From assembly GCA_023135855.1 (NCBI GenBank), contig JAGLSH010000001.1, forward strand, positions 1-44,231: 44,231 nt of DNA, read 5' to 3'. The DNA comes from Candidatus Omnitrophota bacterium. GTDB lineage: Bacteria > Omnitrophota > Gorgyraeia > Duberdicusellales > 4484-171. Under the pieces are notes generated by a model. It saw only the letters and a list, made by a program, of their open reading frames with translations, was not told the origin of the DNA and did not search any database. Every line of letters starts with the position of its first letter. The stretch's first letter is position 1. This document shows positions 1 through 21,572 of the stretch, in pieces. The translations under genes and the position numbers were made by a program.

Positions 1-1167
1 AAATATCTCCTCTTGAAATATTGCAGAATCAGGACTGACCCCTTCAAATACTGTTGGCTCGAAAAAGAACCCCTTCTTTAAAGCTTCATCTTCAGGGATT
101 TTCCCTCCACAAAGTAATTTTGACCCTTCTCGTTTAGCTTTAGCAACATAAGAAATAACTCTGTCACATTGGAACCTAGAAGCAAGTGGCCCAATTTGAC
201 TTTGGAAATCTAAAGAGTCTCCTATCTTTATTTTTTTAGCTTTTTCAACGAATTGACTAACAAAAGCATCGTAAATGCTCTCCTCTATTAATATTCTCGA
301 AGTCGCAGTGCACATTTGCCCTTGATTTAAGAATATCGAACATAAAGATCCGTTCACTGCTGCCTCTAGATCAGCATCTTTTAAAATTATGCTAGCTGAT
401 TTACCCCCTAACTCCATGATTAGCTTCTTAACACTTTTAGCTGAGTATTCTAAAATCTTCTTACCAACTGCATTTGACCCAGTAAAAGAAATCATATCTA
501 CTAAATTACTAGAACAAAGAATCTCGCCTACTTCTTCCCCTGGTCCAGGGATAACATTTACTATTCCATCAGGCACTCCTGCCTCTTTAACTATCTTAGC
601 CAATTCTAAAGCAGTTAAAGGTGTCAGACTTGAAGGTTTTAAAATAACAGCATTGCCAGCAGCAAGGGCTTGAGCCATCTTCCAAGAAGCTATTAACAAT
701 GGGTAATTCCAAGGAACAATTAAAACAACTACACCTCTAGGCTCTCTTAAAAAAGTTGCCTTAACCTTAGCTATCCTTGATTGAATATCTTGAGCCTCGC
801 TAGATAAATATTTTTCAAGATTATTAGCAAAATATTCAAAAGTTGCTGCTGCCGAAGGTATATCCATAAAGGTCGTTTCTTTAATCGGCTTACCAGAATT
901 TAGACTTTCTAGCTCAGCCAATTCTTTAGCCTTTGATAAAATACCTTCAGATATTTTGAGAAGAATACTCTTCCTATCAGCTAAACTAATATCTTTCCAA
1001 GAACCTTGATCGAAAGCAGCTCTTGCAGATTCAATCGCATATTTTGCATCTTTAGCACTAGCCATGCAAACTGTAGCAATAGTTTCATCATTTGAAGGAT
1101 TGATTATATCTCTTTTATACTTTGAATCCTTAAATTCCCCATTAATAAATAAATCGTATTTTTTCAT
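1..1167 (-). CDS. NAD(P)+-dependent aldehyde dehydrogenase (partial; C-terminus runs off the window start)
   Basis: Not a closed ORF in the track. Minus-strand ATG at 1167-1165 overlaps the TGA of the upstream gene (ATGA). My translation reads MKKYDLFINGEF...VPWNYPLL...MELGGKSASII...NQGQMCTATSR...FFFEPTVFEG, which contains the ALDH catalytic Glu (ELGGKS) and Cys (GQMCTA) motifs. The frame is open for 389 codons to position 1. Confidence 0.9.
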   Translation of the reverse strand, partial: MKKYDLFINGEFKDSKYKRDIINPSNDETIATVCMASAKDAKYAIESARAAFDQGSWKDISLADRKSILLKISEGILSKAKELAELESLNSGKPIKETTFMDIPSAAATFEYFANNLEKYLSSEAQDIQSRIAKVKATFLREPRGVVVLIVPWNYPLLIASWKMAQALAAGNAVILKPSSLTPLTALELAKIVKEAGVPDGIVNVIPGPGEEVGEILCSSNLVDMISFTGSNAVGKKILEYSAKSVKKLIMELGGKSASIILKDADLEAAVNGSLCSIFLNQGQMCTATSRILIEESIYDAFVSQFVEKAKKIKIGDSLDFQSQIGPLASRFQCDRVISYVAKAKREGSKLLCGGKIPEDEALKKGFFFEPTVFEGVSPDSAIFQEEIF

Positions 1168-2162
1168 TTAAATTTTACCTGTTTAAATATTTCAAATAGC
1201 CTACTAAAAGGAACATACCAACGTGAAAGCTGCCCTAGTTGACCTTGTAAACTCATCTTTCCTTGAGTAACTGCTACAAAAGGATCCAAACTGCCTAAGA
1301 AAACCTGCTGCCAAATATCATCTGATGCTGAAATAATAAAAGGAGCATCTTTGTCATAATCTAGTTTTATGATTTTCCCTTTTTCAAAATTAAACTTATA
1401 AACTTTATCACTCCCCTCTAAAGCAATAGCCAGCTTAAGAGTTAAATCTAACTCTTCCCCCTTGCTACTCATAAACTCATCTTTATTTACTAAATCCACT
1501 ATAGCTTGAATATGTTCAGAGGAAAACATCAAATATGAAGCATCGCCATCTAACTTTTCCTTAAGAGGCTTATCCAAATCATCTAACACACTCTTATCAA
1601 AAAGTCTAGCCACGGCTACTGTGCACACTGCCTCTTCCAAAGCTTCAACTAAGCTTAGAGCTTCATCAAAATTATTAGCAATGACTACTACGCCATGATT
1701 TTTTAAAACAACTAAATTATTAGTTTTTAAAGCTTCAATAACCTGATCAGGATTAGTTACTGTTGGTGTCTCTTGTTTTATTATTGGAACTTCCCCTAAA
1801 TAAAACTTAGTCTCAAAAGTTAGCGCTTTTAAGGATGAACTAACAGCAAAATAACCATTAATTAAAGGTGGATGACAATGAACTACTACTTTTGAAGGAA
1901 AGTTTTTATAAACAAGACTATGCAAAGACAGCTCTGAACTTGGATTCCGATCACTTTCTGACTTATTGCTATTCAAATTAACCTTCACAATGTCTAAGGG
2001 ATCCAAACTTCCTAAGAAAGACTGGCTAGCGGTAATCAAAATATTTTCATCATCTATCCTGGCGCTTACATTGCCAGACCTTGCCACTGTTAAGCCTTGA
2101 GAATATAAACGTTTTCCTACTCTTATCATTTCATCTTTTAACTTATTTTCTTGATCAACCAT
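1164..2162 (-). CDS. Class II aldolase/adducin-family enzyme (MtnB / FucA / 5-deoxyribulose-1-P aldolase-like) fused to a C-terminal SCP2 sterol-carrier-like domain
   Basis: N-terminal 200 aa carry GNVSAR, ELSLHSLVY (catalytic Glu), VVHCHPP and KNHGVVV (Zn His triad), as in class II aldolases. C-terminal about 110 aa (LTLKLAIALEG...FVAVTQGKMSLQGQLGQLSRW) looks like SCP2. ATG start; overlaps both neighbours. Confidence 0.75.
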   Translation of the reverse strand: MVDQENKLKDEMIRVGKRLYSQGLTVARSGNVSARIDDENILITASQSFLGSLDPLDIVKVNLNSNKSESDRNPSSELSLHSLVYKNFPSKVVVHCHPPLINGYFAVSSSLKALTFETKFYLGEVPIIKQETPTVTNPDQVIEALKTNNLVVLKNHGVVVIANNFDEALSLVEALEEAVCTVAVARLFDKSVLDDLDKPLKEKLDGDASYLMFSSEHIQAIVDLVNKDEFMSSKGEELDLTLKLAIALEGSDKVYKFNFEKGKIIKLDYDKDAPFIISASDDIWQQVFLGSLDPFVAVTQGKMSLQGQLGQLSRWYVPFSRLFEIFKQVKFK

Positions 2163-3111
2163 TTTTCACCTCTAGATAAATATGTTTAGTAATCAAATTA
2201 TTAGGAGTTATATCAAAGGCCGGATAATAAGCTTTTGAACCTTTAGGCGCAAGATGCACTCCTTGATATATTGTCAGCTCTTTATCAGGTCTTATCTCAA
2301 TCTTTATATCCTTACCTGTTTTGGCGCCAGACGTTGGAGCACAAAGTACATAAAAAGGAATTTTAAAATATTTAGCAATTAATCCTATTTGGTAAGTTCC
2401 AATTTTATTAGCGATGTCTCCATTTTGCGCTAAATTATCTGAGCCAACTATAACTTTATTAATCTTACCTTCTTCCATTACCTGAGCAACCATATTGTCA
2501 GTTATTATTGTAACATCAAAACCCGCGCGCATAAGTTCCCAAGCAGTAAGTCTTGAGCCCTGTAAATAAGGCCGTGTTTCAGTAACGAAAAAACTCACGA
2601 CTCTTCCTTTACTTTTAGCAAATCCAGCTATCAAAGGCAAGAGACCACTAACATTACAGTGAGTAAGAATTACATCACCATCCTTGATTAAACTAGCTGC
2701 TTCTTTTGCTTGTTTAATTCGAGCATTCTTTAGCATGTCTAGGAAACCTAATATTGCCTTATCCAAAGGCACACCTGTTTTATCCCAATCCAAAACCATA
2801 TTAGTTAAATACTTAAATGAAAGTGTAGGCCGAGTTGAATTTATTGCTTTAGCAACCTTAACCAAAATAGGAGAAATGTTCTTTTTACCCTTATTGCTTT
2901 TAATAACCATAAGAAAGATATACATAACTAATAGAACCTGACCAACAGCCCGAGTCCTCATCTGACGTATTGCTAGACAAGCTTGTGAATAATTCTTAGC
3001 TTTGACGTACTTCTCTTTATGAGGTAAAAGAGTCTCATCAAGTATATAAATTACATCGCCTTTTAATTTAATCGGCCAAAAAAGTGGTGAAAATTTAAAA
3101 TTCTTATCCAT
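2155..3111 (-). CDS. MtnA / eIF-2B alpha-beta-delta family sugar-1-phosphate isomerase (methylthioribose-1-P or 5-deoxyribose-1-P isomerase-like)
   Basis: ILTHCNVSGL (catalytic Cys), ETRPYLQGSRLTAWEL and VGSDNLAQNGDIANKIGTY (catalytic Asp) are the hallmark MtnA motifs. ATG start at 3111. Confidence 0.85.
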   Translation of the reverse strand: MDKNFKFSPLFWPIKLKGDVIYILDETLLPHKEKYVKAKNYSQACLAIRQMRTRAVGQVLLVMYIFLMVIKSNKGKKNISPILVKVAKAINSTRPTLSFKYLTNMVLDWDKTGVPLDKAILGFLDMLKNARIKQAKEAASLIKDGDVILTHCNVSGLLPLIAGFAKSKGRVVSFFVTETRPYLQGSRLTAWELMRAGFDVTIITDNMVAQVMEEGKINKVIVGSDNLAQNGDIANKIGTYQIGLIAKYFKIPFYVLCAPTSGAKTGKDIKIEIRPDKELTIYQGVHLAPKGSKAYYPAFDITPNNLITKHIYLEVKNG

Positions 3112-3124
3112 AAAAATGATTTAA

Positions 3125-3931
3125 CTAATTAAGAAGTTTTCTATATTCCTCTAATATCTTTAGAGTAACTTCTCCCGGCATACCTTGACCTAATAATTTA
3201 TCATCACACTCAACTAAAGGCATTACCTCCATTAAAGAACTAGTTATAAACGCCTCCCGGCAATTAAATAAATCTTCCAGAGAAGCTTCTCCTTCCTTTA
3301 GATCAATATTTAATTTTTCCAAAATGTTTATAACTAATCCCCGAGTAATCCCGCAAAAAGCACCATCTTCTATTGAAGGAGTAATAACTTTATTATCTTT
3401 AATTAAAAATAAATTACTTCTTGAGCCTCCAGCCAATACTCCTTTAGGGTTCAAAATTAAAGCTTCACTCTTTTTCTTCTTCTGAGCCCCAAACCAAGCT
3501 AATCTATTAGGTAAATAACTTAAAGACTTAACCTGAGAACAAATATTCTTACTACATCTTCGATGAGAAGAAACGGTTGCATCAAACCCTTTTTTGTAAG
3601 TGTCTTCCTTATAATATTCAAACTTATCTACATACATAAGCATTCCCACTCCTTGTCTCTTCTTATAAGCAGTTATTCTTATATAAGCATCTTCTAAGCC
3701 ATTCTCAACTAACAGGTTATGAATTATACTCTGCCAATCTAAGTCAACTTCCCCTATTTCCAGAAGAGTTAAGCTCCTGTCTAAACGTTCAATATGAGAG
3801 TTAAGAAAAGGAATCTTCCCCTTGTAAGCTCTTAAGACTTCAAATATTCCCCAACCAAATAAAAATCCCGGCTCAAAAACATCAGCCAAAGACTCCTTAT
3901 TAATCACCTCTCCATTGTCGTAAACTTTCAT
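3125..3931 (-). CDS. Class IV (fold type IV) PLP aminotransferase / aminodeoxychorismate-lyase-like
   Basis: 268 aa. VKSLSYLPNRLAW (PLP Lys context), GGSRSNLF and GITRG motifs are typical of the BCAT / D-aminotransferase / PabC family. Confidence 0.8.
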   Translation of the reverse strand: MKVYDNGEVINKESLADVFEPGFLFGWGIFEVLRAYKGKIPFLNSHIERLDRSLTLLEIGEVDLDWQSIIHNLLVENGLEDAYIRITAYKKRQGVGMLMYVDKFEYYKEDTYKKGFDATVSSHRRCSKNICSQVKSLSYLPNRLAWFGAQKKKKSEALILNPKGVLAGGSRSNLFLIKDNKVITPSIEDGAFCGITRGLVINILEKLNIDLKEGEASLEDLFNCREAFITSSLMEVMPLVECDDKLLGQGMPGEVTLKILEEYRKLLN

Positions 3932-4815
3932 TCAAATAATCCTGCTAAATTCTTATAAGTAATTTTCTCTTTAACTTCTTCACCTAGTTCATCTAAAATC
4001 TTAAGATTACTTTCTAAATCAAGATTAACTGGATAGTCTGACCCCCAAAGAATATGATCTTGACCAAATAAATCTAAAGCCAATTTAATATTACCAAGAG
4101 ATGATCCTGATGTATCCACATAAACTTCTTTTAGAATCTGAGATGGTGCTCTTCCTAAATCTTTAACCATCTCTCTTTTGCGTAACATTGTATAGACTCG
4201 ATCAAATCTATCTTTTAAGAAAGGAACAACTCCTCCCAAAGATGCCAAAATGAACTTTACTTTAAATTTATCCAGCACCCCTTCCATCATAAGCAAACCT
4301 AGAAAAGTAGATAGGTCTAAACTATACTCTAGAACCGGCATAAGCAAAGGATCTTTCACCCGGCTATAACCAATAGGGTTAATGGTTTGGGAATGAACAA
4401 AAATTGGTAAATTATGTTCCTGGACTGCTTCAAATAAAGGAAAAAGCTGATCAACTATAAACTTACCATTATAACTTGAAGCTAGGTTTATTGCCTTGAA
4501 TCCTCTGTTCTTTAACTGAGCCAATTCAGAAGAAATATTGCTTAAATCTTCTACATCAACTAGACAAGCTGCAACTATCTTAGGGTTTTCCTTTAAAATC
4601 TTCTCTACTTCTCTATTGTAGATTTCACTAACCTTTTTAAAACCACCCAATTTAAGGTAAGCATCTGTAGAAGGATAAACTAAAAAAGCTCTATCAATAT
4701 TATTACTATCTAAGAATTGATAAAGTTTATCCTTATCAGCCCAGACACCTTTATAAAAGTTAGTATGGTCTGAAAGCTCTCCGGGAATAAAGTGGATATG
4801 ACTATCAGCTAACAT
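3928..4815 (-). CDS. Amidohydrolase_2 (TIM-barrel metal-dependent hydrolase/decarboxylase, ACMSD-like) family protein
   Basis: N-terminal DSHIH (HxH metal motif) and C-terminal WGSDYP (metal Asp). 295 aa. The start is preceded by repeat family 1 and has no SD. Confidence 0.75.
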   Translation of the reverse strand: MLADSHIHFIPGELSDHTNFYKGVWADKDKLYQFLDSNNIDRAFLVYPSTDAYLKLGGFKKVSEIYNREVEKILKENPKIVAACLVDVEDLSNISSELAQLKNRGFKAINLASSYNGKFIVDQLFPLFEAVQEHNLPIFVHSQTINPIGYSRVKDPLLMPVLEYSLDLSTFLGLLMMEGVLDKFKVKFILASLGGVVPFLKDRFDRVYTMLRKREMVKDLGRAPSQILKEVYVDTSGSSLGNIKLALDLFGQDHILWGSDYPVNLDLESNLKILDELGEEVKEKITYKNLAGLFE

Positions 4816-4892: not shown

Positions 4893-6353
4893 TTAAACGT
4901 GTTTTTCTCCCTTAACTGCACCTTCTTCCCACTTAGTTACACCCTTCATTACATCTTGGAAGCATAACTTAGCTAGGATATCAAAGTTACTAGTCATAAT
5001 CCTCTGGATTCTACCTGGCTTTGAGAAAAATTCTCTCATGCACCAAGAACCTAGCCTTCCATAATCTTCCAATGATAGATGTTCTGTGGCCATTACTGGG
5101 TGTAAGAAATCCCACTGAAGAAAATCTATTTTGCTAGGGTCAATCTCACCAGTTTTGATTCTTTGTCTCCAAATTGGAGAATTTGGTGCTGGGGTAACAT
5201 AGCCTACCCATAAAATATCTGGATCAACTACATCAGTAAATTCAAATCTATCCTTTATGATAGCTTCAGTATCACCATCAAAACCCATCATAATGTCAGC
5301 AACAATAGCAATATTGTTCTTTCGTAGGATTTCAATAGTCTTCTTTATCTGTTCAATGGTGATTCCTTTAGCTATTCTTTTTAACTCTGAAGCAGTGGTA
5401 ACTTCTATGCCAAACACTCCAGTAAACAAACCAGCTTCTTTCATCAAAGGTAAAATTTCTTCACAATTAACCCAATCAATAGCTCTACCTAAAGAAACCC
5501 ATTTAATCGGATTTTCTTTTTCCAATTTCAGCCGGCAAAACTTCTCTACTCTCTCAGGATCAACATTAAAATTATCATCCTGAATTACCACTACCTTTAC
5601 TCCGTACTCCTTATGAAGCAATTCTAGTTCTTCAATTACTCTTTCCGGAGATTTTGCCCGCCATTTTAGAAAATCTTCTGGATGCCTAGGGTCATATTGA
5701 TCCCACTCATAACAAAAAGTACAAGCAGAAGGACATCCTCTGGAAGTAACCATCTCAACGAATGGTTTCCAATGAGTATGACCAACATACTTCTCCATAG
5801 GAAATAAATCATAGGCTGGAAGTGGTAACTTATCTAAATCTGTATTCAGAGCCCTGTGCGGCCCCATAACAGCCTTACCATCTACTCTTGAGCTCACTCC
5901 AGCGATATCTGTTATTTCTTCTGACTTCTCTATCGCCGAAACTAAATCACAAAAAGCCTCTTCTTCACCCATGACTACATAATCAATAGCTGGATTGCTT
6001 TCTAGAGTAAATACTGGCATTGAGGAATACCACAATCCTCCAACAATTATTTTTATATTAGGCAGCACTTCTTTTATTAGTTTTGCTGCCTGATTAAAAT
6101 AATGAAGAATAGCAAACCCTCCATAAGAGTGAAGCATATCTCCAAGAACAAGAACATCAGGATTTTTTTGCTTAACTTGCTCAACCATTTCATCTGTTTC
6201 TATCTCTAAGGCTTTACAGTCTAAAACCTCTAAATCTTTATGACCTTTTTCTCTAATATAAGAAGCCCATTGAGCATAAAGTTGATCAGGGCCGAGATGT
6301 TTACCATGAGTTGCCCAAGCGCCTGACTTCGGTGTTAAAAATAAAATTTGCAT
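4893..6353 (-). CDS. B12-binding-domain radical SAM protein
   Basis: N-terminal Rossmann-like B12-binding region (DVLVLGDMLHSYGG). Radical SAM cluster motif SRGCPSACTFCYE (CxxxCxxC). 486 aa. Strong SD (AAGGAGGAG) upstream of the ATG at 6353. Confidence 0.9.
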   Translation of the reverse strand: MQILFLTPKSGAWATHGKHLGPDQLYAQWASYIREKGHKDLEVLDCKALEIETDEMVEQVKQKNPDVLVLGDMLHSYGGFAILHYFNQAAKLIKEVLPNIKIIVGGLWYSSMPVFTLESNPAIDYVVMGEEEAFCDLVSAIEKSEEITDIAGVSSRVDGKAVMGPHRALNTDLDKLPLPAYDLFPMEKYVGHTHWKPFVEMVTSRGCPSACTFCYEWDQYDPRHPEDFLKWRAKSPERVIEELELLHKEYGVKVVVIQDDNFNVDPERVEKFCRLKLEKENPIKWVSLGRAIDWVNCEEILPLMKEAGLFTGVFGIEVTTASELKRIAKGITIEQIKKTIEILRKNNIAIVADIMMGFDGDTEAIIKDRFEFTDVVDPDILWVGYVTPAPNSPIWRQRIKTGEIDPSKIDFLQWDFLHPVMATEHLSLEDYGRLGSWCMREFFSKPGRIQRIMTSNFDILAKLCFQDVMKGVTKWEEGAVKGEKHV

Positions 6354-6386: not shown

Positions 6387-7154
6387 TTATTTTTCTGGAT
6401 GATCCTGCTTAAAAGGTATCACTGGTTTCTTCCAAGGCGTTTGCTGATTAATTACCGCTAACTCTAAAGGGCAAGTATTTTCACTTTGAGTTAAAGCAAA
6501 TAAAACTGTGTCAGCTATTGCCTCTGGTTCCATTAATCTTCCCCCTTCCTCAGATATATCTTTTAACTTGCCAGTTAAAGGGGTTCTGGTTACTCCTGGA
6601 AATATTGAAGTAACTTTAATCCCAAAATCACGCATCTCCCAAAAAAGTCCCTTAGCAAAAGCCCTCAGGGCAACTTTCAAAGAAGTATAAACTATGAAAT
6701 TGCGTGGTGGGGGATCTACCATAACTGAACCACTAGTAATGTTCACAATATGCCCACCGCCAGCATCTTTCATATGATTAACAACTAAACGCGAAAGCAT
6801 GACATAACTATAGTAATTTGTATGCATGATTTTTTCAATATCCTCTACTGGCTGTTGCCAAAAAGGATACTGGCTTGAAACTCCTGCTCCGTTGACAACA
6901 ATATCTATCTTGCCAAATTTATCAATTGTCTTATTAACTAAATTCTCTAAATCACTTTGTTTAGTGACATCACACCTTATGCATAATACTTTTTCTTGGT
7001 TAGGAAGTGATTTTTTAATATCCTCTAAAACTTCCTCTCTCCTTGCGGCAAGAACAAGATTGGTACCTTGTGCGGCTAATTTCTCAACTACACTTTTACC
7101 AATCCCGCCACTGGCTCCAGTTATAATACAAACTTTATCGCCTAAATTACTCAT
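6387..7154 (-). CDS. Short-chain dehydrogenase/reductase (candidate ketoreductase)
   Basis: TGASGGIGK cofactor motif, VNGAGV, catalytic YTSLK (YxxxK). 255 aa. Confidence 0.9.
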   Translation of the reverse strand: MSNLGDKVCIITGASGGIGKSVVEKLAAQGTNLVLAARREEVLEDIKKSLPNQEKVLCIRCDVTKQSDLENLVNKTIDKFGKIDIVVNGAGVSSQYPFWQQPVEDIEKIMHTNYYSYVMLSRLVVNHMKDAGGGHIVNITSGSVMVDPPPRNFIVYTSLKVALRAFAKGLFWEMRDFGIKVTSIFPGVTRTPLTGKLKDISEEGGRLMEPEAIADTVLFALTQSENTCPLELAVINQQTPWKKPVIPFKQDHPEK

Positions 7155-7166: not shown

Positions 7167-8291
7167 TTAATTTATTATTTTCTTTAAATTAAAACCTAGA
7201 AAAAATATACTTAAAAATATCACAATAAATAAAACCTTAAATCCGGCTATTGATACTAATAGCCCTCCTAAAAAAGCACCTAGTCCTCCAAAACTAAAAC
7301 GCAAAGAACTGTTTAGGCTTGAAGCATCACGTAATATTCTATCAGGAAATGAAGTAAGATGAGACGCTAGTCCAACATGAGTAAGAGCCATGCCTGCGCC
7401 CCAAAAAGTTATCATTAATAAAATTAACTTATAATTACCTATAAAAATAAGAGAAAAAGCAAAAACACTCATTAAAGTAAAACCAATGCTGCTTATTTTA
7501 ATATTTCCAAAACGAGCACTTAAAAATCCCCCTGAAAACTCAAATATTATTGCAGCTAAGGTAGCTACAGTAAAAACTGAACTTATAGCCATCTGCCCTA
7601 AGGAAAAACTCTCACTTAAATAAACACCTAAACGCTGCTGCAGACCATGGTACAGAAGACTTCCCAGGGTAACTACTAAAAAGAAATTAATTACTTTTTT
7701 ATCTTTTAAAGTATTAAGATAACTTATCTTAAACTTATCAACTCTAAAATCAAAATCTTCTAATTTAGTAAGTACTAAAACAAATACCAATAAACTTGCA
7801 ATTGATGGTATTAGATAAAGTCCTAAAGGAAATTTTTCAAAAAATCCACTTAAAAACACACTGATAAAGTTTGAAAAATAAGAAAAACCAAAAAATATTC
7901 CAATAGTTTTTGCTTTCTCTCCAGGAGGGACAACCTTACCAACAGCAATAAGAACTAAAGGTACAAAGCTACAGCCAAAACAACCCATTAAAAATCTAGC
8001 TATAAAAGCTTGCTCAATGCTCCTTGATAAACTAAAGAAAAAAGATGATAGGAAAAATCCTAAAGTTGCAATTAGAAGAATCTTTTTAACCTTAACTATT
8101 CTAGTAAAAGGCGCCCAAACAAGAGCAAAAACCCCATAAGGAAGCATGTAAAGCCAAGTAAGGGGTAAGGCTTGAGCTTTATCTATCCCAAAATAAACAG
8201 CTATTGATGGTATTAGAGCGGCCATAGCTGAAACACCGAATGATATTACAAAGAACATCAGACAAAAAATATATAAACTTTTCTTAGGCAT
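7167..8291 (-). CDS. MFS-type transporter
   Basis: 374 aa with about 11-12 hydrophobic helices throughout. Overlaps the upstream SRPBCC gene by 8 nt. Confidence 0.8.
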   Translation of the reverse strand: MPKKSLYIFCLMFFVISFGVSAMAALIPSIAVYFGIDKAQALPLTWLYMLPYGVFALVWAPFTRIVKVKKILLIATLGFFLSSFFFSLSRSIEQAFIARFLMGCFGCSFVPLVLIAVGKVVPPGEKAKTIGIFFGFSYFSNFISVFLSGFFEKFPLGLYLIPSIASLLVFVLVLTKLEDFDFRVDKFKISYLNTLKDKKVINFFLVVTLGSLLYHGLQQRLGVYLSESFSLGQMAISSVFTVATLAAIIFEFSGGFLSARFGNIKISSIGFTLMSVFAFSLIFIGNYKLILLMITFWGAGMALTHVGLASHLTSFPDRILRDASSLNSSLRFSFGGLGAFLGGLLVSIAGFKVLFIVIFLSIFFLGFNLKKIIN

Positions 8292-8721
8292 TAGCCTCTT
8301 TTTCTATTACTTCCTTAAATCTCTTTAAATTATCTTGAGAATGTTTATTTATCAACTCTTCAACCTGAGGATCAGTATACTTAGCCTTATCATCCATGGT
8401 AAAATCCTGAATCCAAGTCATCTCAACTCCACCCTCTACTTCTCTATAAAGCCAAACAATCTTCATATACTTAAAAGGAAACATTGGCTCTATTTTACAA
8501 GCATAAGCAAATTTATCCTCTTTAAAAAGTAAACGATAAGATTTCCAACTATTTCCATTCTTATGAGTAAGTTGAAAAATAATCTTATTACCCTCTACCT
8601 CTAGAACATCTGAGGCTGTATATTCCTCAAATAGTTCTTTCCATCGAGAAATATCATTACTAATATCAAATATCAACCCATAGGATGCATTGATTACAAT
8701 AGAATTTGCTGTATGTGCCAT
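8284..8721 (-). CDS. SRPBCC-superfamily protein (polyketide cyclase/dehydrase-like, Polyketide_cyc2-type)
   Basis: 145 aa. Beta-rich start MAHTANSIVINASYGLIFDISNDISRWKELF and a C-terminal long helix, the typical START/Bet v1 layout. SD GAGGAGG before the ATG. Assignment is from pattern memory only. Confidence 0.6.
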   Translation of the reverse strand: MAHTANSIVINASYGLIFDISNDISRWKELFEEYTASDVLEVEGNKIIFQLTHKNGNSWKSYRLLFKEDKFAYACKIEPMFPFKYMKIVWLYREVEGGVEMTWIQDFTMDDKAKYTDPQVEELINKHSQDNLKRFKEVIEKEANA

Positions 8722-8840: not shown

Positions 8841-9647
8841 TTAATAATCATCCAGAACTGCGACTACCCTTGCCCAAGCAGCACCAGTCTTTATTATTCT
8901 TATTGGAAAACAAATAACTTTAAATCCGAAATTTGGTAATTTATCTAAATTAGCTAATCTTTCAATATGGATAAATTCTCTCTTCCGACCATGAAAATGG
9001 GCTGGCCAAAGATGCCTTGAATCTTTACTTTTCATAAAATCCTTGATCATAAACTTATAAGGCCTATCAATACCCATAGTATCTACCCCAAATATCTTTA
9101 TACCTTTATCCAGAAAATAATCTATAGCTGAGGCATCTACTCCCGGATAATCACTAAAATATTGAGGAGTCCCGTGCAAACGATCAGAACCAGTATAAAT
9201 AAAAACAATATCTAAAGGCTTTAAGCTATAGTTTATTTTTCCTAAGGCCTTTTCTAAGTCTTCCTTTTTAATAACCTCATCTCCCTTTTTATGGCTAAGA
9301 TCTAATCTCACCCCATCGCAATTGCACCACTCCAAAGGTATCTCGTCAGCTGTTTTTGAAGGCTTACCTTCAGATTTACTGCCATAATGAAAAGAATAAT
9401 CAAGATGAGTTCCGCTATGTACTGAAGAATGTACTATCTCTAAAGATAAAAACTCTCCATCAGGTAAGTCTTCCTTTTTAACTATCCGCTTGCCTAATAA
9501 ATGCTGAATCTTCCCCTTTAAAGTCCTGCCCATTAATACCTTATTAAGTTTCTCAACTCCTTGTTTATGAGATGTTCTCTCAATTTCAAGTTTATGAACT
9601 TCAAATGCCTTGTCGTCAATGGGTAAACTTAAATCTACTATTTTCAT
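8841..9647 (-). CDS. Metal-dependent cyclase-family protein (PF04199-type; kynurenine formamidase / DpsY-OxyN-type polyketide cyclase family)
   Basis: HSSVHSGTHLDYSFH matches the HxGTHxDxPxH signature of the putative-cyclase family. 268 aa. Confidence 0.75.
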   Translation of the reverse strand: MKIVDLSLPIDDKAFEVHKLEIERTSHKQGVEKLNKVLMGRTLKGKIQHLLGKRIVKKEDLPDGEFLSLEIVHSSVHSGTHLDYSFHYGSKSEGKPSKTADEIPLEWCNCDGVRLDLSHKKGDEVIKKEDLEKALGKINYSLKPLDIVFIYTGSDRLHGTPQYFSDYPGVDASAIDYFLDKGIKIFGVDTMGIDRPYKFMIKDFMKSKDSRHLWPAHFHGRKREFIHIERLANLDKLPNFGFKVICFPIRIIKTGAAWARVVAVLDDY

Positions 9648-9648: not shown

Positions 9649-9885
9649 TTAGAATTGTTTTTTCCTTTCGATTAAATCAACTATTTCATTAACAGTAGAA
9701 AATTTGGTAATCTCATTGGTTTCAATCTTTACACCAAAGTGCTTATTAAAAGTAACCACCAGCTCTACCATCTCTGTTGAATCAACACCAATGGAATCAT
9801 ATAATTTCTGATCGGCTTTTACCTCATCTTCATTTATGTCCAATGTCTTACTTATAAGCTCTATAACTTCTTTCTTTAATTCCAT
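9649..9885 (-). CDS. Acyl carrier protein
   Basis: 78 aa. Phosphopantetheine attachment motif GVDSTEMVELV. SD AGGAGG before the ATG. Confidence 0.85.
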   Translation of the reverse strand: MELKKEVIELISKTLDINEDEVKADQKLYDSIGVDSTEMVELVVTFNKHFGVKIETNEITKFSTVNEIVDLIERKKQF

Positions 9886-9894: not shown

Positions 9895-11130
9895 CTATTT
9901 CTTCTCAACAGCTAAGACAACATTTATTCCACCCCGCCCTCTAGCAATAATTAAAGCCTTGTTGATAGTTTTCTCTTTAAGCTTATTAGGGGTGTAATCT
10001 AAATCACAATAAGGATCATTCATTAATTGATTAATTGTTGGTATCACTACTGAGTTCTTCATTGAAAATAATGTAATAATCAAATCTAGGGCACTTTGAG
10101 CGCCTAATAAATTACCGTAAATACTCTTAGGAGCACTAAGAGCAATATTTTTTATATTCTCTCCAAATACATTCTTTAGCGCTTGGGTTTCAAGATAATC
10201 TCCAATTACAGTTGCTTCACCATCTAAGCAAATATAATCAACATCTTCCTTATTCCACTTAGCATCTTTTAAGCACTCCTTAATTGCATATTCTAAATCA
10301 TCTGATTCAGGGGCATATCGCAAATAGTGATAGCCATCAGAAGAAAAACCTATTCCTTTAATAAATCCATAAATAGGAGCTCCTCGTTTCTTAGCTTTTG
10401 ATTCTTTCTCTAGGATTACTATTCCTGAACCTTCACCTAAAACAAATCCATCTCTATCTAAGTCATAAGGTTTATATGCTGTTTTAGGATTAAGATTATT
10501 TTTTGATAACTGACCGCAAGTATTTGCGCTCAATAAAGCATAAGGAGTAATCGGAGCTTCCATTCCTCCGGCTAATACAAAATCATTCTTATCCTGAGCT
10601 ACCACCTTGGAGCCATACCACAAACTCAAAGCTGATGATGCCTTGTCAGCAACTATAGTCTTACTATATCCTTTGAAGCCATAATATATAGTAACTTGGC
10701 CCTGAGGCGCTGCTGGGAACCAAGCTGAAGCCATATAGGGAGAAATACCTTCTCTTCCCTCTATATACATATCTCTTAACTCAGTCTCGGCAAAAAGCCA
10801 ACCACCAATAGCATTGCCCATAAATACGCCAACTCTATTCTTATCAATTTTTTCTAAATCCATTCCAGAATCTTTTATAGCTTGTTCTGAAGCAACTAAA
10901 GCCATATGAGAAAACACATCTATCTTCTTAACTAATCTTCCTGAAACATGCGAATAGTGATCCAACTCATGAACTTGGCCAGCAATCCGAGAAGGATAAA
11001 GACTAGCATCAAATCTCTTAACTTCATCAATAAAAGATTCGCATTTTTTCAGATTAGCCCAAAAAGTTTCTTTTTTTAATCCGCATGGTGAAACTACGCC
11101 TACGCCAGTTATTGCAACTCTATCACTCAT
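9895..11130 (-). CDS. Ketosynthase-beta / chain-length-factor-like protein (KS fold, catalytic triad absent)
   Basis: Aligns along its full length to the upstream KS. The active-site positions read ADKASS (Cys to Lys), CLDGEAT (His to Asp) and YGNLLG (His to Asn). The track start at 11142 is GTG. I prefer the ATG at 11130, which has GGAGG 5 nt upstream and lies 2 nt after the KS-alpha TAA. Confidence 0.85.
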   Translation of the reverse strand: MSDRVAITGVGVVSPCGLKKETFWANLKKCESFIDEVKRFDASLYPSRIAGQVHELDHYSHVSGRLVKKIDVFSHMALVASEQAIKDSGMDLEKIDKNRVGVFMGNAIGGWLFAETELRDMYIEGREGISPYMASAWFPAAPQGQVTIYYGFKGYSKTIVADKASSALSLWYGSKVVAQDKNDFVLAGGMEAPITPYALLSANTCGQLSKNNLNPKTAYKPYDLDRDGFVLGEGSGIVILEKESKAKKRGAPIYGFIKGIGFSSDGYHYLRYAPESDDLEYAIKECLKDAKWNKEDVDYICLDGEATVIGDYLETQALKNVFGENIKNIALSAPKSIYGNLLGAQSALDLIITLFSMKNSVVIPTINQLMNDPYCDLDYTPNKLKEKTINKALIIARGRGGINVVLAVEKK

Positions 11131-11132
11131 GA

Positions 11133-12380
11133 TTACCTCCACCTCTTAAACACAATAGAAGAATGTATTCCGGAAAATCCACTGCTAGTTTTAAGTATAT
11201 ACTCTGGCATAATCTCCCGCTTTTTATTAGGAATATAATCTAGATCACATTTAGGATCAGGTTCTTCCTGATTAATAGTTGGTGGAAGATACCCTTTCTC
11301 AAAAATCATACAACACAATACACTCTCTACAGCATTAGCTGCTGCTAAAGGATGACCGATCATCGACTTAATCGAGCTTATCGGCACCTTATAAGCAAAA
11401 TCTCCGAAAACCTTTTTGTAAGCATCGGTTTCAAAAGCATCATTCTGACGAGTAGATGATCCATGAGCACTTATATAGCCAATGTCCTCATTCTTTATTC
11501 CTGAATTCTTTATAGCTTCCCGCATTGAACGAGCCATAGGTTCACCATCTGCAGGTAAATCAGTCATATGATATGCATTGCAACTTGTTCCAAACCCGAG
11601 AATTTCAGCATAAATGTGAGCCCCTCTTTTTTTAGCATGTTCTAATTCTTCTAAAATTAAAATTCCAGCTGCTTCACTAATAACAAAGCCATTCCTCTTA
11701 TTATCAAAAGGACGGCTAGCCTTATGAGGTTCTTCATTATTCTTAGCCAAAACATTTACTACATCAAAAGCTCCAAAAGTAATCGGTGTGATTGGTGCCT
11801 CAGTTGCCCCAGCAATAACTATATCTTGTCTTCCTTCTTGAATAAGTTCAAAAGCAAAACCTAAAGAATCAGTTCCAGCAGTGCACCCAGTTGAAACCGT
11901 ACAATTCATTCCCTTTGTCCCATGAATACCACTTACCTCAGCACTAGGAGTATTAAACATAGCAGCATCATAAAGAAAGGGTCTACCTTTTCGAGGATCA
12001 ATCGGATTCTTGCCCCAATCAGTAACTAGCAAGAATTCTTCCTCCATAAGACGGGTTCCACAAATAGCATTTGCTAGGATTACACCACATCTACGCCTAT
12101 CTAATTTATTAAAATCTAAATTAGCATCTTCTATTGCACCCTTAGCCGCAGCAATTCCGAACTGAACATATCTATCCATACGCCTATGCTCAGCTATATT
12201 AAATTTTAAAGGGTCAAAATTTAAATCTTGAGAAGCAATCTTTGAAACAAATAAACTTACATCAAAATTTTCAACCTTTTCAATGTAAGATTTACCTTCA
12301 ATTAAATTATTATAAAATTCATTCTTCTCTTCTCCAGCTCCACAAATAACTCCAATTCCAGTAATTACTACTCTCTTCAC
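11133..12380 (-). CDS. Beta-ketoacyl synthase (KS-alpha; FabF/type II PKS KS family)
   Basis: Intact Cys-His-His triad: STGCTAGTDS, SAHGSSTRQND, MIGHPLAAA. GTG start with AGGAGG 8 nt upstream. Confidence 0.9.
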   Translation of the reverse strand: MKRVVITGIGVICGAGEEKNEFYNNLIEGKSYIEKVENFDVSLFVSKIASQDLNFDPLKFNIAEHRRMDRYVQFGIAAAKGAIEDANLDFNKLDRRRCGVILANAICGTRLMEEEFLLVTDWGKNPIDPRKGRPFLYDAAMFNTPSAEVSGIHGTKGMNCTVSTGCTAGTDSLGFAFELIQEGRQDIVIAGATEAPITPITFGAFDVVNVLAKNNEEPHKASRPFDNKRNGFVISEAAGILILEELEHAKKRGAHIYAEILGFGTSCNAYHMTDLPADGEPMARSMREAIKNSGIKNEDIGYISAHGSSTRQNDAFETDAYKKVFGDFAYKVPISSIKSMIGHPLAAANAVESVLCCMIFEKGYLPPTINQEEPDPKCDLDYIPNKKREIMPEYILKTSSGFSGIHSSIVFKRWR

Positions 12381-12407: not shown

Positions 12408-13016
12408 TTATTTTTCTTTTCTGCTAACTTTAAAAATAATGTTTCCCCCATCAGGACAAGTAACTGTATCTATAGAATTCTGATCCTTCATAAAGGGAAA
12501 TTTTGCTCCAAAATTTAAAGCAAAAAAAGCTGGAAAAGCTGTATGCCAAGCTGCTCCGCAAAATCCAGGAATACACTTTAGCCCCTCAGTTTCCCATTTA
12601 TCGCCAACCTTATACTTATAAAAACATTTAGGCGAAGCCATCCCTTTAGGGGTTCCTTTAGCCTCAACAACTTCAATGACCATCTTCTTGAGATTCGGTC
12701 CTTTGAAATCAGGATCTTTATTCACTATATCGATTTGACCTTCTTTGTTAAAAATTTCAGCTTTGAATTCTAATTTTCCACCATCGGGACAAGTAACCAA
12801 TAAAGATCTTTGATTTTCCATGAAGGGAAATTTTGCTCCAAAGCTTAAACCATAAATTACCGGAAATAATGCATGAGCTAGACCTAGGCAAAAATGTTTT
12901 GGCGGATGAGTAAAATCCTCTAAAATAATTTCATCACCAATTTTATAACCATGGTAACAATCCCCATAAACATTAATCACTGTCAATTTTAATTTTAAAA
13001 AAGGTGTTTTAATCAT
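12408..13016 (-). CDS. Tandem-duplicated TIGR04076-like small Cys-rich domain protein
   Basis: Two about 95-aa halves share the same pattern: C.H.YK.GD....FC...H..FP....L.FGAKFPFM.....L/TVTCPDGG..(E/I)FK. Family name is recalled from memory, not searched. Confidence 0.55.
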   Translation of the reverse strand: MIKTPFLKLKLTVINVYGDCYHGYKIGDEIILEDFTHPPKHFCLGLAHALFPVIYGLSFGAKFPFMENQRSLLVTCPDGGKLEFKAEIFNKEGQIDIVNKDPDFKGPNLKKMVIEVVEAKGTPKGMASPKCFYKYKVGDKWETEGLKCIPGFCGAAWHTAFPAFFALNFGAKFPFMKDQNSIDTVTCPDGGNIIFKVSRKEK

Positions 13017-13017: not shown

Positions 13018-14013
13018 TTAAATCCTCAGTTCTTTTAATAACTCTTCTTTTGTATAAAACCTTTTTGCCTTCTCTACTCTGTGAACTAATTTAACTATTC
13101 TTATATTTATTGGTGCTCTTAGATTATTCTTAGTAGCCAAATCAACAATTGCACCATTGATATAATCAATCTCTGAAGGTTTATTGTGTTTTATGCTTTG
13201 CAATATTGAACCATAAAAAGGTTCTTTACTTAAAGAAGTCATTACTTTTGAAAAAATACCTGCAGCCTCCTCTGTATTTATTGAAACTAATCCTTCTAGT
13301 CTAGCCTTAGGATAAGTAGGCAAATCAGCTAATTCTATACCGCTATTTTTAACAACATCATAGGCTTCTTTATTTAGTTTTATTGCTATTTTTGCTAAAT
13401 CTAAATCACTAAATGTTTCCTGCATAGATAAACCTAGAATTGCCGGAAGACAATTGTTAAGATTAATAAATAATTTAAGATATTTAGCCCCTTTTATTTT
13501 ATTCGAGATTGATACATCAAAACCAAATTTTAAAAAATCTACTACCTCTTTGATCTTGGCTACTTCTTTGCCAAAAATATTACCCACTGTCAAATTACCT
13601 TTAAAATGATGGATTACTCTATTCGGTCGATAAAATGTTGCTCCAAACATAACAATACCGCTTATAATCTTCTCTTCTGGAAAATACTTATTCAATATAT
13701 AATCAGCACTTACCCCATTTTGGGTACTAATTACAGTAGCATCTTTTAAATATTCTAAATTTGCCTTTATTAAAGTCTCTAAATCACCTATTTTGCTTGA
13801 GAAGATAGCTAAATCTACCTTTTCTTTAAGCTGATTATCAACTTTTACCTTATAAATACTTTTAACTCTAGCAGATTCAACAATTAAACCCTCTCCTAAC
13901 AAAGACTCTAGCTGATAATCTTTAACTACCCCAACAACATCAGGACTCTCTTCTGTGAGATAACCCAAGAATAATCCGCCAATCGCTCCACAACCTAAAA
14001 CCGCTACTTTCAT
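13018..14013 (-). CDS. 2-dehydropantoate 2-reductase (ApbA/PanE) family oxidoreductase
   Basis: N-terminal MKVAVLGCGAIGG Rossmann motif. 331 aa with the typical two-domain KPR length. SD AAAGGAG. Confidence 0.75.
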   Translation of the reverse strand: MKVAVLGCGAIGGLFLGYLTEESPDVVGVVKDYQLESLLGEGLIVESARVKSIYKVKVDNQLKEKVDLAIFSSKIGDLETLIKANLEYLKDATVISTQNGVSADYILNKYFPEEKIISGIVMFGATFYRPNRVIHHFKGNLTVGNIFGKEVAKIKEVVDFLKFGFDVSISNKIKGAKYLKLFINLNNCLPAILGLSMQETFSDLDLAKIAIKLNKEAYDVVKNSGIELADLPTYPKARLEGLVSINTEEAAGIFSKVMTSLSKEPFYGSILQSIKHNKPSEIDYINGAIVDLATKNNLRAPINIRIVKLVHRVEKAKRFYTKEELLKELRI

Positions 14014-14027: not shown

Positions 14028-14285
14028 TTAACTGATATATTGTGAGTAATCAATATCCAATTTACTAAGTAATCTTTCAAGCATGCTTTTGAAGGCTGGG
14101 GGAACTTCCTGAAAAAAAGCAATAATCAAATCTTTGTCTTCAACTTCTTTTGAGTCTCTCCCCTGGGCCAATTCTTCAGACTTTTGTTTAATAAGTTGCT
14201 CAGCAATTGTTCTGTGAAATTGCGGTAAATTGTCAGTTACTTTGTTAAACTTATTTTTTGTTTCTTGATTCCAAATAATTCCCAT
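14028..14285 (-). CDS. Small hypothetical protein (possibly PCP_red-like helical domain)
   Basis: 85 aa. Good SD (GGGGAGAGGG) and ATG, in an operon context. WNQETKNKFNKVTDNLPQFHRTIAEQL weakly resembles the protochlorophyllide-reductase C-terminal-like domain (memory only). Confidence 0.4.
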   Translation of the reverse strand: MGIIWNQETKNKFNKVTDNLPQFHRTIAEQLIKQKSEELAQGRDSKEVEDKDLIIAFFQEVPPAFKSMLERLLSKLDIDYSQYIS

Positions 14286-14303: not shown

Positions 14304-15038
14304 TTATAATTCCTCAACAACTTTGAATCCTAAGTCTATCATTTTCATTTCAGCTTCAAAAAATCTATAATCAGCAAATCCTAATGTTCCGGTAATAAGA
14401 TTATCAGAAACTGCTAAGATAGCTGCAACCTTTCTTTTGTAGAGATTGGCTACGGTCACAAATGGTGAAGTTACCATGTCAACAGCAATTGCCCCTTTCT
14501 CTATATAGGGGTTAACTATTTCTTTAGTCTCCTTAAACAAAGCATCAGTTGTCCACACTCCTCCACGATGTAAAGTGCCCTCAGTTTTAAAAACCTCTTC
14601 TATTTTTGATGTTAGTTCATCGTCTACTTTAGATATATAATTATCATCTACATAATACTTAGTGGCTCCATCTCCTCGAATAATATCAGCAGCTAAAACA
14701 TAATCTCCAACATTCATATCCTCTTTTAAAGCTCCGCAAGACCCCAGTCTAATCAAAGTATTGATTCCGCCAACACATAAAAACTCAGTAACAAAGGCTG
14801 AATCAGGAGCATAGAAACCACCATTCCCAACAGTTACTTTCTTACCCTTATAGAACCCAGTCCAAAAAGTATAACCAAGAAAGGTAAAATTCTTTACACA
14901 ATCCTCTAATTTCTCTAAACACATTTTTGCCCTGTGCTGTTGTCCGCTAATTAAAGCAATTTCGCCAAAATCACCATCTTTAAACTGTAAAGAGCTCAAA
15001 AGATCTTTTGGGCTTAAATGAATATCTCTTTGCATCAT
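14304..15038 (-). CDS. Nucleoside phosphorylase, PNP_UDP_1 family (purine / uridine / MTA phosphorylase-like)
   Basis: RLGSCGAL motif, GDGATKYY, AVDMV. 244 aa. SD AGGAG before the ATGATG. Confidence 0.75.
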   Translation of the reverse strand: MMQRDIHLSPKDLLSSLQFKDGDFGEIALISGQQHRAKMCLEKLEDCVKNFTFLGYTFWTGFYKGKKVTVGNGGFYAPDSAFVTEFLCVGGINTLIRLGSCGALKEDMNVGDYVLAADIIRGDGATKYYVDDNYISKVDDELTSKIEEVFKTEGTLHRGGVWTTDALFKETKEIVNPYIEKGAIAVDMVTSPFVTVANLYKRKVAAILAVSDNLITGTLGFADYRFFEAEMKMIDLGFKVVEEL

Positions 15039-20220: not shown

Positions 20221-20230
20221 GACTTTTTCA

Positions 20231-20258
20231 TTGACTTACACACTAATAATGTTACTAT
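20231..20258 (+). promoter_or_regulatory. Candidate outward (Pc-like) promoter feeding the cassette array
   Basis: TTGACT (20231-20236), a 16-nt spacer ending in TG (extended -10), then TACTAT (20253-20258). Lies between the IS end and the first GTTATGA (20302-20308). Confidence 0.35.
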
Positions 20259-20330
20259 TCCAATAGCAGTAAAAGATAAAATGAATAGGCGTATATTAAT
20301 TGTTATGATTAAAAAATAAAAGGATAAAAA

Positions 20331-20711
20331 ATGAATATTATCATACCAATACTAAGTGCTCTATTCGGATTAATCTTTGGTCATTGGTTAAATCGTAGGC
20401 GAAATTTTGAAAACAAAAAAAGGGAAATTCGCATCAATTATCTTATAGAAGCCTACCGGAAACTCGAAAGGGGAGCTATCCCAAACGCTAAAAATTTTGA
20501 TAAAGGGGATTTCGAAAGTGCGATTGCAGACATACAAATGCTTGGCAACCTTGAGCAAGTTAACATCGCTTATGAGTTTGCTATTAAGGCGACTCAAGGC
20601 GATGGCTCGAAATTGCAAGAATTACTGGAAAATCTCCGAATGGAATTAAGAAACGAATTATCAATCAAAAATAATAAATTACCAAAGATAAGCCCGTTTA
20701 GGATAAACTAA
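20331..20711 (+). CDS. Cassette ORF 1: hypothetical protein with one N-terminal TM helix
   Basis: 126 aa. MNIIIPILSALFGLIFGHWL is hydrophobic and is followed by a helical soluble part. No family recognised. Confidence 0.6.
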   Translation: MNIIIPILSALFGLIFGHWLNRRRNFENKKREIRINYLIEAYRKLERGAIPNAKNFDKGDFESAIADIQMLGNLEQVNIAYEFAIKATQGDGSKLQELLENLRMELRNELSIKNNKLPKISPFRIN

Positions 20712-20720
20712 TAGATAAAA

Positions 20721-20785
20721 TCATAACAACTCAATCCACCTGACCAAAAAGCTGCTCTTTTCGGCAGGTGATTTTTGTGTTATAT
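20721..20785 (+). repeat. attC-like site 1
   Basis: ATAACA (20723-20728) pairs with TGTTAT (20778-20783). CCACCTG pairs with CAGGTGA. Ends in GTTATAT (20779-20785). Confidence 0.6.
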
Positions 20786-20825
20786 GAAAAATAAATTTAA
20801 TAAAAATAAAAAGGAGGTGATGTAA

Positions 20826-21014: not shown

Positions 21015-21074
21015 CAAGTCAATGCACCCAACCTTTTCCGCCGCTTCAAAGGTGGGTGATTTCGGGCGTTATAG
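21009..21074 (+). repeat. attC-like site 2
   Basis: ATAAC (21011-21015) ... GTTATAG (21068-21074). CACCCAACCTTT pairs with AAAGGTGGGTG with one unpaired base. Shares a 28-nt identical left arm (21020-21047) with attC 3. Confidence 0.65.
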
Positions 21075-21086
21075 GAGAAAATAATA

Positions 21087-21547: not shown

Positions 21548-21572
21548 TAAAAAATTAAAAGGAGAAAATATC

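Follow-up and report, generated by a model that had tools for sequence, protein, structure and literature searches.

Aldolase-SCP2 fusion in a conserved phosphorylase-isomerase-aldolase-dehydrogenase module of Omnitrophota: a possible nucleoside-trimming branch of a lipid/polyketide-like gene cluster

Gene organization of the module

The window analyzed herein, a stretch of 44,231 nucleotides from a Candidatus Omnitrophota bacterium, corresponds to the entire contig C1 of a 790-kb metagenome-assembled genome (MAG) that consists of 114 contigs and is estimated to be 75% complete; those homologues of its proteins that bear a name are labelled Candidatus Omnitrophota/Omnitrophica. It carries a module of genes for a nucleoside phosphorylase, an MtnA-like isomerase, a class II aldolase fused to an SCP2-like domain and an aldehyde dehydrogenase (ALDH), accompanied by genes for an acyl ligase and a radical S-adenosylmethionine (SAM) enzyme. 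A preliminary description of this DNA, made from its letters, had called five genes (those for the phosphorylase, radical SAM enzyme, isomerase, aldolase and ALDH). All five were located on the minus strand as open reading frames (ORFs) exactly at the coordinates given below, with their catalytic residues intact.

15176-16684, minus strand: acyl-AMP/CoA ligase (PF00501, E 1.4e-83)
14304-15038, minus strand: cluster-specific hexameric-type PNP_UDP_1 phosphorylase (PF01048, E 3.7e-34)
4893-6353, minus strand: B12-binding-domain radical SAM enzyme (PF02310 and PF04055)
2155-3111, minus strand: cluster-specific IF-2B/MtnA-like sugar-1-phosphate isomerase (PF01008, E 3e-56)
1164-2162, minus strand: aldolase-SCP2 fusion protein
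1626-2132, minus strand: its class II aldolase domain, residues 11-179 (PF00596, E 7e-36)
1167-1532, minus strand: its SCP2-like C-terminal domain, residues about 211-332 (PF02036, 23.0 bits, cut-off 21.3)
1-1167, minus strand: aldehyde dehydrogenase, N-terminal 389 of 497 residues (PF00171, E 3.5e-133)

One minus-strand operon spans position 16684 to the contig end, with the acyl ligase as its first gene and the ALDH as its last. A longer contig (L001) codes for the same proteins, and there the ALDH gene is followed by rlmN and other housekeeping genes, indicating that ALDH closes the cluster. The first 150 nt of the window, which lie inside the ALDH gene, overlap positions 1-150 of contig C85 of the same MAG, and the last 108 residues of ALDH are encoded on that contig. 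The end of the window within ALDH is thus an assembly break and no biological truncation. Families were assigned by means of the curated NCBIfam models with their own cut-offs, Pfam, and sequence and profile searches of the PDB; the isomerase, the aldolase and the phosphorylase all scored under the curated NCBIfam cut-offs.

The aldolase-SCP2 fusion protein

The aldolase domain contains the three metal-binding His residues and the acid/base Glu of class II aldolases. Glu77, His95, His97 and His156 were invariant among 23 homologues down to 35% identity, as was the phosphate motif G30-N31-x-S33, and Glu77 aligned with the catalytic Glu76 of DrdA. The closest PDB sequence matches of the domain were YgbL (6VOP), DrdA (6BTD) and FucA, and in both sequence and fold it was about equally similar to the three. 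The best NCBIfam model, the archaeal-type aldolase PRK08660, gave 107 bits (cut-off 203), followed by OtnC (3-oxo-tetronate 4-phosphate decarboxylase) as the second-best family with 98.9 bits (cut-off 250), while TIGR01086 and related L-fuculose-phosphate aldolase models gave 41-76 bits (cut-offs 250-400).

The preliminary description had named a grouping with the MtnB dehydratases as one of the findings that would speak against its reading of this enzyme. Its score with the MtnB model TIGR03328 was 60 bits against a cut-off of 137, and no MtnB-named chain occurred among its 28 PDB sequence matches. Judged from these rankings of model scores and PDB matches, the domain constitutes a separate clade distinct from MtnB. 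When eight cluster-bearing genomes were searched for class II aldolases, no second one, and hence no MtnB, was found, and the fusion was the sole class II aldolase of the cluster genomes examined.

The C-terminal SCP2 domain proposed earlier was likewise borne out. Although the PF02036 match of the window protein by itself was marginal (E 1e-4), the family was matched by all 23 diverse fusion homologues (best E 2.6e-8), and when a profile of the last 128 residues was searched against the PDB, SCP2 proteins made up 13 of the 16 matches (1WFR and 2CX7, E 5e-5). In the AlphaFold model of the fusion (predicted local distance difference test, pLDDT, 87.7), the C-terminal region formed an independent alpha/beta domain (pLDDT 80-95) with a topology compatible with SCP2, separated from the aldolase domain by a disordered linker at residues 199-205. 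A Foldseek search with the full model returned only aldolase-family structures among its top 50 and no independent fold match for the SCP2 domain, which, when modelled alone from a single sequence, reached a pLDDT of 38.7. The assignment is therefore robust at the sequence level, where it draws on sequence and profile evidence together with the model topology. The fusion had also been called unusual: no paper on a class II aldolase-SCP2 architecture was found in the literature searched, but within the phylum it is common, occurring in about a quarter of Omnitrophota species.

The isomerase and the phosphorylase as extra paralogues

The cluster isomerase was most similar in the PDB to Thermotoga MtnA (1T9K, E 4e-51), and its Cys152 and Asp225, the catalytic pair of MtnA/DrdI-type enzymes, aligned with Cys160 and Asp240 of the B. 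subtilis MtnA (numbering of the 2YRF chain plus 21). Against TIGR00512 (MtnA) it scored 228.5 bits, under the cut-off of 279, whereas a second copy encoded in the same genome (C27:5180-6217), adjoining genes for methionyl-tRNA synthetase and a TatD-like hydrolase, scored 422 bits, above it; this copy represents the housekeeping MtnA. The cluster enzyme was also considered as a ribose-1,5-bisphosphate isomerase or an eIF2B subunit, and this assignment was rejected, as its TIGR00511 score was 117 bits (cut-off 314), less than it reached with the MtnA models.

When compared with the housekeeping MtnA, the cluster isomerase retains the catalytic residues and the 1-phosphate-binding Arg, Arg, Gln and Lys. 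RGAP, however, is replaced by RAVG, five residues are missing after RPT, and seven are missing directly after the catalytic Cys. In ribose-1,5-bisphosphate isomerase, the residues after the corresponding Arg and Cys hold the 5-group (PMC5789824). By this motif correspondence, we infer that the specificity of the cluster enzyme for the 5-substituent has been altered.

The duplication is mirrored across the phylum. IF-2B genes were detected in 265 of the 301 species-representative Omnitrophota genomes over which distribution was counted, and copy number was nearly always one without the fusion and two or more with it: at least two IF-2B genes were present in 74 of the 79 genomes with the fusion versus 6 of the 222 others (a raw count without phylogenetic correction). 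The cluster isomerase is thus an extra paralogue of the housekeeping MtnA.

A similar picture emerged for the cluster phosphorylase, which retains the phosphate-binding Arg residues and the SDN catalytic Asp212 and has the hexameric 5'-methylthioadenosine (MTA) phosphorylase of S. solfataricus (1JDS, E 2e-24) as its best PDB match. It scored 98 bits against the DeoD models (cut-off 230) and weakly, 43 bits, against HpnG (cut-off 187), and the family scan gave no match to TIGR01694 (MtnP). Relatives carry a canonical MtnP (TIGR01694, 317-324 bits versus a cut-off of 275) adjoining proC and a gene for a ribokinase-family kinase, and two PNP_UDP_1 genes were present in cluster-bearing genomes. 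The cluster phosphorylase is thus a further paralogue, distinct from the housekeeping MtnP that relatives carry.

The dehydrogenase, ligase and radical SAM enzyme

In the full-length 497-aa ALDH encoded on L001, the general base and the nucleophile of hydrolytic NAD(P)+-dependent ALDHs were both present, as Glu252 in the motif ELGGK and Cys286 in GQMC; judged from these two residues, the enzyme would be of the irreversible, hydrolytic type. The nearest model of the ligase was the long-chain fatty-acid-CoA ligase PRK06187 (430 bits, cut-off 476), the acetate-CoA ligase model giving 232 bits, and in relatives the ligase gene directly adjoins that of the phosphorylase or the ALDH. The radical SAM enzyme possesses the CxxxCxxC motif (C207xxxC211xxC214). 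Its best NCBIfam match was BchE, at 206 bits versus a cut-off of 481, the match to HpnJ was weak, and no similarity to HpnH or MqnE appeared in the family scan. Assignment to the ladderane-type family TIGR04072 was tried and rejected (86 bits, cut-off 360).

Distribution and conserved synteny

The full-length fusion was found in 79 of the 301 Omnitrophota species genomes, distributed over many families and down to 36% identity. A collection of species genomes yielded 370 relatives, of which the best 80 were all either Omnitrophota or MAGs auto-labelled "uncultured Planctomycetales/Planctomycetia", and when a member of 36% identity served as the query, Omnitrophota names were once more the only ones retrieved. 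Of six Omnitrophota genomes without the cluster that were examined, four yielded neither a class II aldolase nor MtnB.

Synteny was assessed at 34 loci for which 10 kb of flanking sequence was available on either side. The isomerase, ALDH, Amidohydro_2 and short-chain dehydrogenase/reductase (SDR) genes were each present at all 34 loci, and those for the radical SAM enzyme, the acyl carrier protein (ACP) and the cyclase at 32 each. The counts for the phosphorylase (28/34) and the ligase (25/34) are limited by flank length, as the window copies of these genes sit upstream beyond the reach of the flank. The class IV aminotransferase gene was a variable member (5/34).

Three gene orders were distinguished. 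Many relatives have the order Amidohydro_2, phosphorylase, isomerase, aldolase, ALDH and ligase. Deep-branching relatives show ligase, phosphorylase, isomerase, aldolase, ALDH and radical SAM enzyme, followed further on by two ketosynthases (KS), ACP and cyclase. In many relatives the genes from phosphorylase to ALDH, with the ligase gene at one end or the other, directly succeed one another. The third order (L036, L037 and L120) comprises ligase, phosphorylase, isomerase, radical SAM enzyme, a 160-aa half-IF-2B protein, aldolase-SCP2, MMPL, a LolA-like protein and DUF1302, and the L120 locus adjoins lipopolysaccharide heptosyltransferase genes. An orthologue of the KS pair was absent from the genomes with L036 and L037 and from that of a congener, which contained only FabF-like genes (36-39% identity), and the radical SAM gene adjoins the module also in variants without the KS pair. 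The invariant core is therefore made up of the ligase, radical SAM enzyme, phosphorylase, isomerase and aldolase-SCP2, plus the ALDH, together with a lipid theme. The polyketide synthase (PKS)-like KS pair, missing in some lineages, lies outside this core and is an add-on in part of the phylum.

The half-IF-2B gene, which codes for about 160 aa and is situated between the genes for the isomerase and aldolase-SCP2, occurs in deep-branching loci, and the window has no such gene. It was located at the following positions and matched PF01008 at positions 125-214 (E 5e-8).

L036:9118-9594: half-IF-2B gene
L037:10535-11017: half-IF-2B gene
L120:9543-10019: half-IF-2B gene
L121:9528-10004: half-IF-2B gene

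The encoded protein covers only the middle of the IF-2B fold and is possibly a shortened subunit that pairs with the isomerase. The genes for MMPL, the LolA-like (TP_0789-like) protein and DUF1302 follow the aldolase gene in several lineages, as at L036:10612-15378 and L120:14912-19667, and the window has a major facilitator superfamily (MFS) transporter gene instead. A comparable export trio belongs to aryl-polyene and other outer-membrane lipid clusters.

Remaining genes of the operon and window

From its 5' end, the operon encodes the acyl ligase, the phosphorylase, a DUF2621-like protein, an ApbA-like reductase, a duplicated TIGR04076 protein, KS-alpha and a KS-beta-like protein. The genes that follow encode ACP, a PF04199 cyclase, an SRPBCC protein, the MFS transporter, SDR, the radical SAM enzyme, Amidohydro_2, the class IV aminotransferase, the isomerase, the aldolase-SCP2 fusion and ALDH. 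The genes other than those listed above are as follows.

14028-14285, minus strand: DUF2621-like protein, 85 aa, kept in deep-branching relatives
13018-14013, minus strand: ApbA/PanE-like reductase, kept in deep-branching relatives
12408-13016, minus strand: duplicated TIGR04076 protein, 202 aa, just upstream of KS-alpha, kept in deep-branching relatives
11133-12380, minus strand: KS-alpha (PF00109 and PF02801)
9895-11142, minus strand: KS-beta-like protein (PF00109 and PF02801)
9649-9885, minus strand: ACP (GVDS motif; PF00550 in L001)
8841-9647, minus strand: PF04199 cyclase (Pfam, conserved synteny)
8284-8721, minus strand: SRPBCC/polyketide_cyc2 protein (Pfam, conserved synteny)
7167-8291, minus strand: MFS transporter (Pfam, conserved synteny)
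6387-7154, minus strand: SDR, ketoreductase-like (Pfam, conserved synteny)
3928-4815, minus strand: Amidohydrolase_2 family protein (PF04909, E 8.7e-20)
3125-3931, minus strand: class IV aminotransferase-like protein (PF01063, E 9.5e-47)

A motif search located the active-site Cys motif in KS-alpha (TGCTAG at 164) and none in the KS-beta-like partner. Both tandem TIGR04076 domains show a conserved C...HG...PxxFC...CPDGG pattern. Elsewhere in the window, positions 20221-22926 contain short plus-strand ORFs without a Pfam match, followed by an IS200-like Y1 transposase gene (22372-22926). No paper on the cluster itself was found in the literature searched; in a catalogue of type II PKS clusters, Candidatus Omnitrophica does no more than appear among the phyla with pairs of KS and chain-length factor (PMC10132072).

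Proposed function of the module

Taken together, the presence of the genes with their catalytic residues, the SCP2 domain, the paralogy and the conserved synteny are best explained by a reading to which we assign a probability of about 0.5, namely that the phosphorylase, isomerase, SCP2-aldolase, ALDH and ligase make up a dedicated nucleoside-trimming branch of an Omnitrophota lipid/polyketide-like cluster. The phosphorylase would strip the purine from a 5'-modified, SAM-derived adenosine, which would be neither plain MTA nor plain 5'-deoxyadenosine, to give a 5-substituted ribose-1-phosphate, and the remodelled MtnA paralogue would convert this into the corresponding ribulose-1-phosphate. The class II aldolase would then release dihydroxyacetone phosphate (DHAP), while the SCP2 domain would keep hold of the hydrophobic aldehyde X-CH2-CHO. 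Hydrolytic ALDH would irreversibly oxidize this aldehyde to X-CH2-COOH, and the long-chain-type ligase would adenylate the acid, which could then be loaded onto ACP/KS or joined to an exported lipid. The flow in this direction, the identity of X and the passage of the acid to the ligase are deduced. X is probably hydrophobic, in view of the SCP2 domain in all 23 members, the MMPL, LolA-like and DUF1302 exporters and the long-chain-like ligase.

The preliminary description had proposed the succession of phosphorylase, MtnA-type isomerase, class II aldolase and ALDH, and had left it between detoxification of a radical SAM by-product and supply of a building block. The sequences fit the succession, and the earlier interpretation as a whole is supported in part. 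As for the two purposes, the module probably makes a building block, waste disposal being less likely: the extra diverged paralogues weaken the latter, and the tie of the module to an acyl ligase and to lipid-export/PKS-like genes across deep divergence favours the former.

The modified adenosine would most obviously come from the adjacent radical SAM enzyme. By analogy with HpnH and HpnG of hopanoid synthesis, this enzyme might add a 5'-deoxyadenosyl group to a hydrophobic acceptor, after which the module would trim the ribose to -CH2-COOH and the ligase would activate the acid. We regard this specific version as doubtful, since the enzyme has a B12-binding domain and no similarity to HpnH or MqnE.

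Several observations weigh against the trimming-branch reading. None of the cluster genes encodes an enzyme known to produce 5'-modified adenosines, and a fluorinase/chlorinase (SAM_HAT, PF01887), searched for as a source of 5'-halo-adenosine, was not found in the 75%-complete genome. The known B12-binding radical SAM members methylate or rearrange. The SCP2 domain could be a docking or oligomerization element that binds no ligand, and a few lineages have the aldolase without SCP2 (L041-L044); in L041 and L043 either SCP2 or the isomerase is lacking. Furthermore, the top PDB sequence match of the aldolase domain, YgbL, is a member of a decarboxylase-type family, so that aldol cleavage is deduced from the genomic context.

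Four rival explanations were weighed. Against each speaks at least one of the following: the extra paralogues, the conservation of the SCP2 domain, the type of ligase, the variants without the KS pair, or the irreversible ALDH. The likeliest of them, which we nevertheless consider unlikely, is in-cluster clean-up by the DHAP shunt proper, in which 5'-deoxyadenosine released by the radical SAM enzyme would be converted to DHAP and acetaldehyde, and the latter via acetate and the ligase to acetyl-CoA. This would remove a product inhibitor and save carbon in a very small cell, and the radical SAM enzyme would also give S-adenosylhomocysteine if it methylates. The enzyme order is that of the characterized 5-deoxyribose/DHAP shunt (PMC6079011, PMC10986504), the radical SAM gene adjoins the module in nearly all loci, and the best PDB match of the phosphorylase is an MTA phosphorylase. 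The housekeeping MtnP and MtnA, however, already cover the first two steps and would yield the ketose-1-phosphate from MTA or 5'-deoxyadenosine, yet the diverged cluster copies of both have been kept through deep divergence, which is not expected of simple salvage. The isomerase falls under the MtnA equivalog cut-off, acetaldehyde would give the conserved SCP2 domain no role, the ligase resembles the long-chain acyl model far more than acetate-CoA ligase (430 versus 232 bits), and the class II aldolase is missing from four of the six cluster-lacking genomes mentioned above. The context thus argues against a role in the disposal of 5'-deoxyadenosine or MTA, as far as can be judged from sequence.

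Type II PKS clusters often include a ligase for a non-acetate starter, and the genes for ligase, phosphorylase, isomerase, aldolase and ALDH form a contiguous stretch that adjoins those for KS-alpha, KS-beta and ACP. The module might accordingly turn MTA or 5'-deoxyadenosine into (methylthio)acetaldehyde or acetaldehyde and thence into a short starter, such as methylthioacetyl, for KS/ACP. To this proposal, which we consider quite unlikely, the objection of the duplicated paralogues applies equally, and the SCP2 domain is left unexplained. In addition, three lineages (G214, G217 and G244) keep the ligase, radical SAM enzyme, phosphorylase, isomerase, aldolase-SCP2 and exporters without a KS-alpha/KS-beta orthologue, having FabF-like genes only (36-39% identity).

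It is improbable that the likeness to the shunt is coincidental and that the aldolase-family domain acts as a decarboxylase, epimerase or dehydratase on another phosphorylated intermediate. This would agree with YgbL as the top PDB match, with OtnC as the second-best family at 98.9 bits and with the scores of all curated aldolase models under their cut-offs. On the other hand, ketose-1-phosphate aldol cleavage would lead one to expect the tight co-inheritance that links the domain to a sugar-1-phosphate isomerase, a nucleoside phosphorylase and an ALDH, and the acid/base Glu and the phosphate-binding motif common to FucA and DrdA are invariant.

Most improbable of all are ordinary catabolism, from adenosine through ribose-1-phosphate and ribulose-1-phosphate to DHAP and glycolaldehyde, and a reverse run in which a lipid aldehyde would receive a C5-extended head group of the sugar or nucleoside type. 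The aldolase matches the haloarchaeal ribulose-1-phosphate aldolase model weakly (62 bits), and aldolases and phosphorylases are reversible, but glycolaldehyde would leave SCP2 without a role, the remodelled 5-group segments of the isomerase would probably be needless for plain ribose-1-phosphate, and the ALDH, being of the irreversible, hydrolytic type, speaks against the reverse run.

If the trimming-branch reading is true, a large phylum without cultured members would have copied the DHAP shunt, a familiar route of waste disposal, and adapted it to direct SAM-derived carbon into a membrane or outer-membrane lipid, and the list of pathways that use the ribose of SAM as a building block, fluoroacetate and hopanoid side chains among them, would grow. 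If its adenosylation version also proved true, a SAM-driven two-carbon "carboxymethyl" extension of lipids would represent a new route to carbon-carbon bonds in lipid/polyketide biosynthesis. Four soluble, expressible enzymes would offer an entry to a conserved orphan cluster of about a quarter of Omnitrophota species, and the aldolase-SCP2 architecture may serve as a biocatalyst for hydrophobic aldehydes.

Comparison with known systems

The pathway logic is known from the DHAP shunt and from fluoroacetate biosynthesis; what is new is the SCP2 fusion and the lipid context, neither of which was encountered in the literature searched. The DHAP shunt, or 5-deoxyribose salvage, which proceeds via MtnP, or MtnN plus MtnK/DrdK, then MtnA/DrdI and Ald2/DrdA, draws on these same three families of enzymes, acting in the same succession (PMC6079011, PMC10986504), and the cluster retains the Cys and Asp of the isomerase, the His triad and Glu of the aldolase, and a nearby radical SAM gene. 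It differs in that its phosphorylase and isomerase are extra diverged paralogues beside housekeeping MtnP/MtnA, that its aldolase is fused to SCP2, that an ALDH and an acyl ligase are fixed members, and that the module is embedded in a lipid/PKS-like cluster, never occurring as a free operon in the loci examined.

In the biosynthesis of fluoroacetate and 4-fluorothreonine by Streptomyces cattleya, the fluorinase FlA, the phosphorylase FlB, an isomerase of 5-fluoro-5-deoxyribose-1-phosphate (5-FDRP), an aldolase and fluoroacetaldehyde dehydrogenase act in turn (PMC3999930). There, a 5'-modified adenosine made from SAM is shortened through phosphorolysis, MtnA-type isomerization, cleavage by a fuculose-type aldolase and ALDH oxidation to an acid X-CH2-COOH that serves biosynthesis rather than salvage (PMC3999930). 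In the present cluster, by contrast, no SAM_HAT gene was found, X is probably hydrophobic, and a ligase and KS/ACP or lipid exporters follow.

In the formation of the hopanoid side chain, the radical SAM enzyme HpnH adenosylates diploptene and the phosphorylase HpnG acts next, such that a radical SAM enzyme and a PNP_UDP_1 phosphorylase operate on a lipid in which ribose carbons of SAM end up (PMC13459092). The radical SAM enzyme here differs in being B12-binding and not of the HpnH type, and the ribose would shrink to two carbons.

Finally, SCP2 domains occur in fusion or in partnership with enzymes that act on hydrophobic compounds, as in the SCPx thiolase, MFE-2, alkyl sulfatases and UbiJ/UbiT. 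The fusion described here shares with these proteins the SCP2 fold on a catalytic domain, and its invariant aromatic residues fit a hydrophobic cavity, whereas the catalytic partner is in this case a sugar-phosphate class II aldolase.

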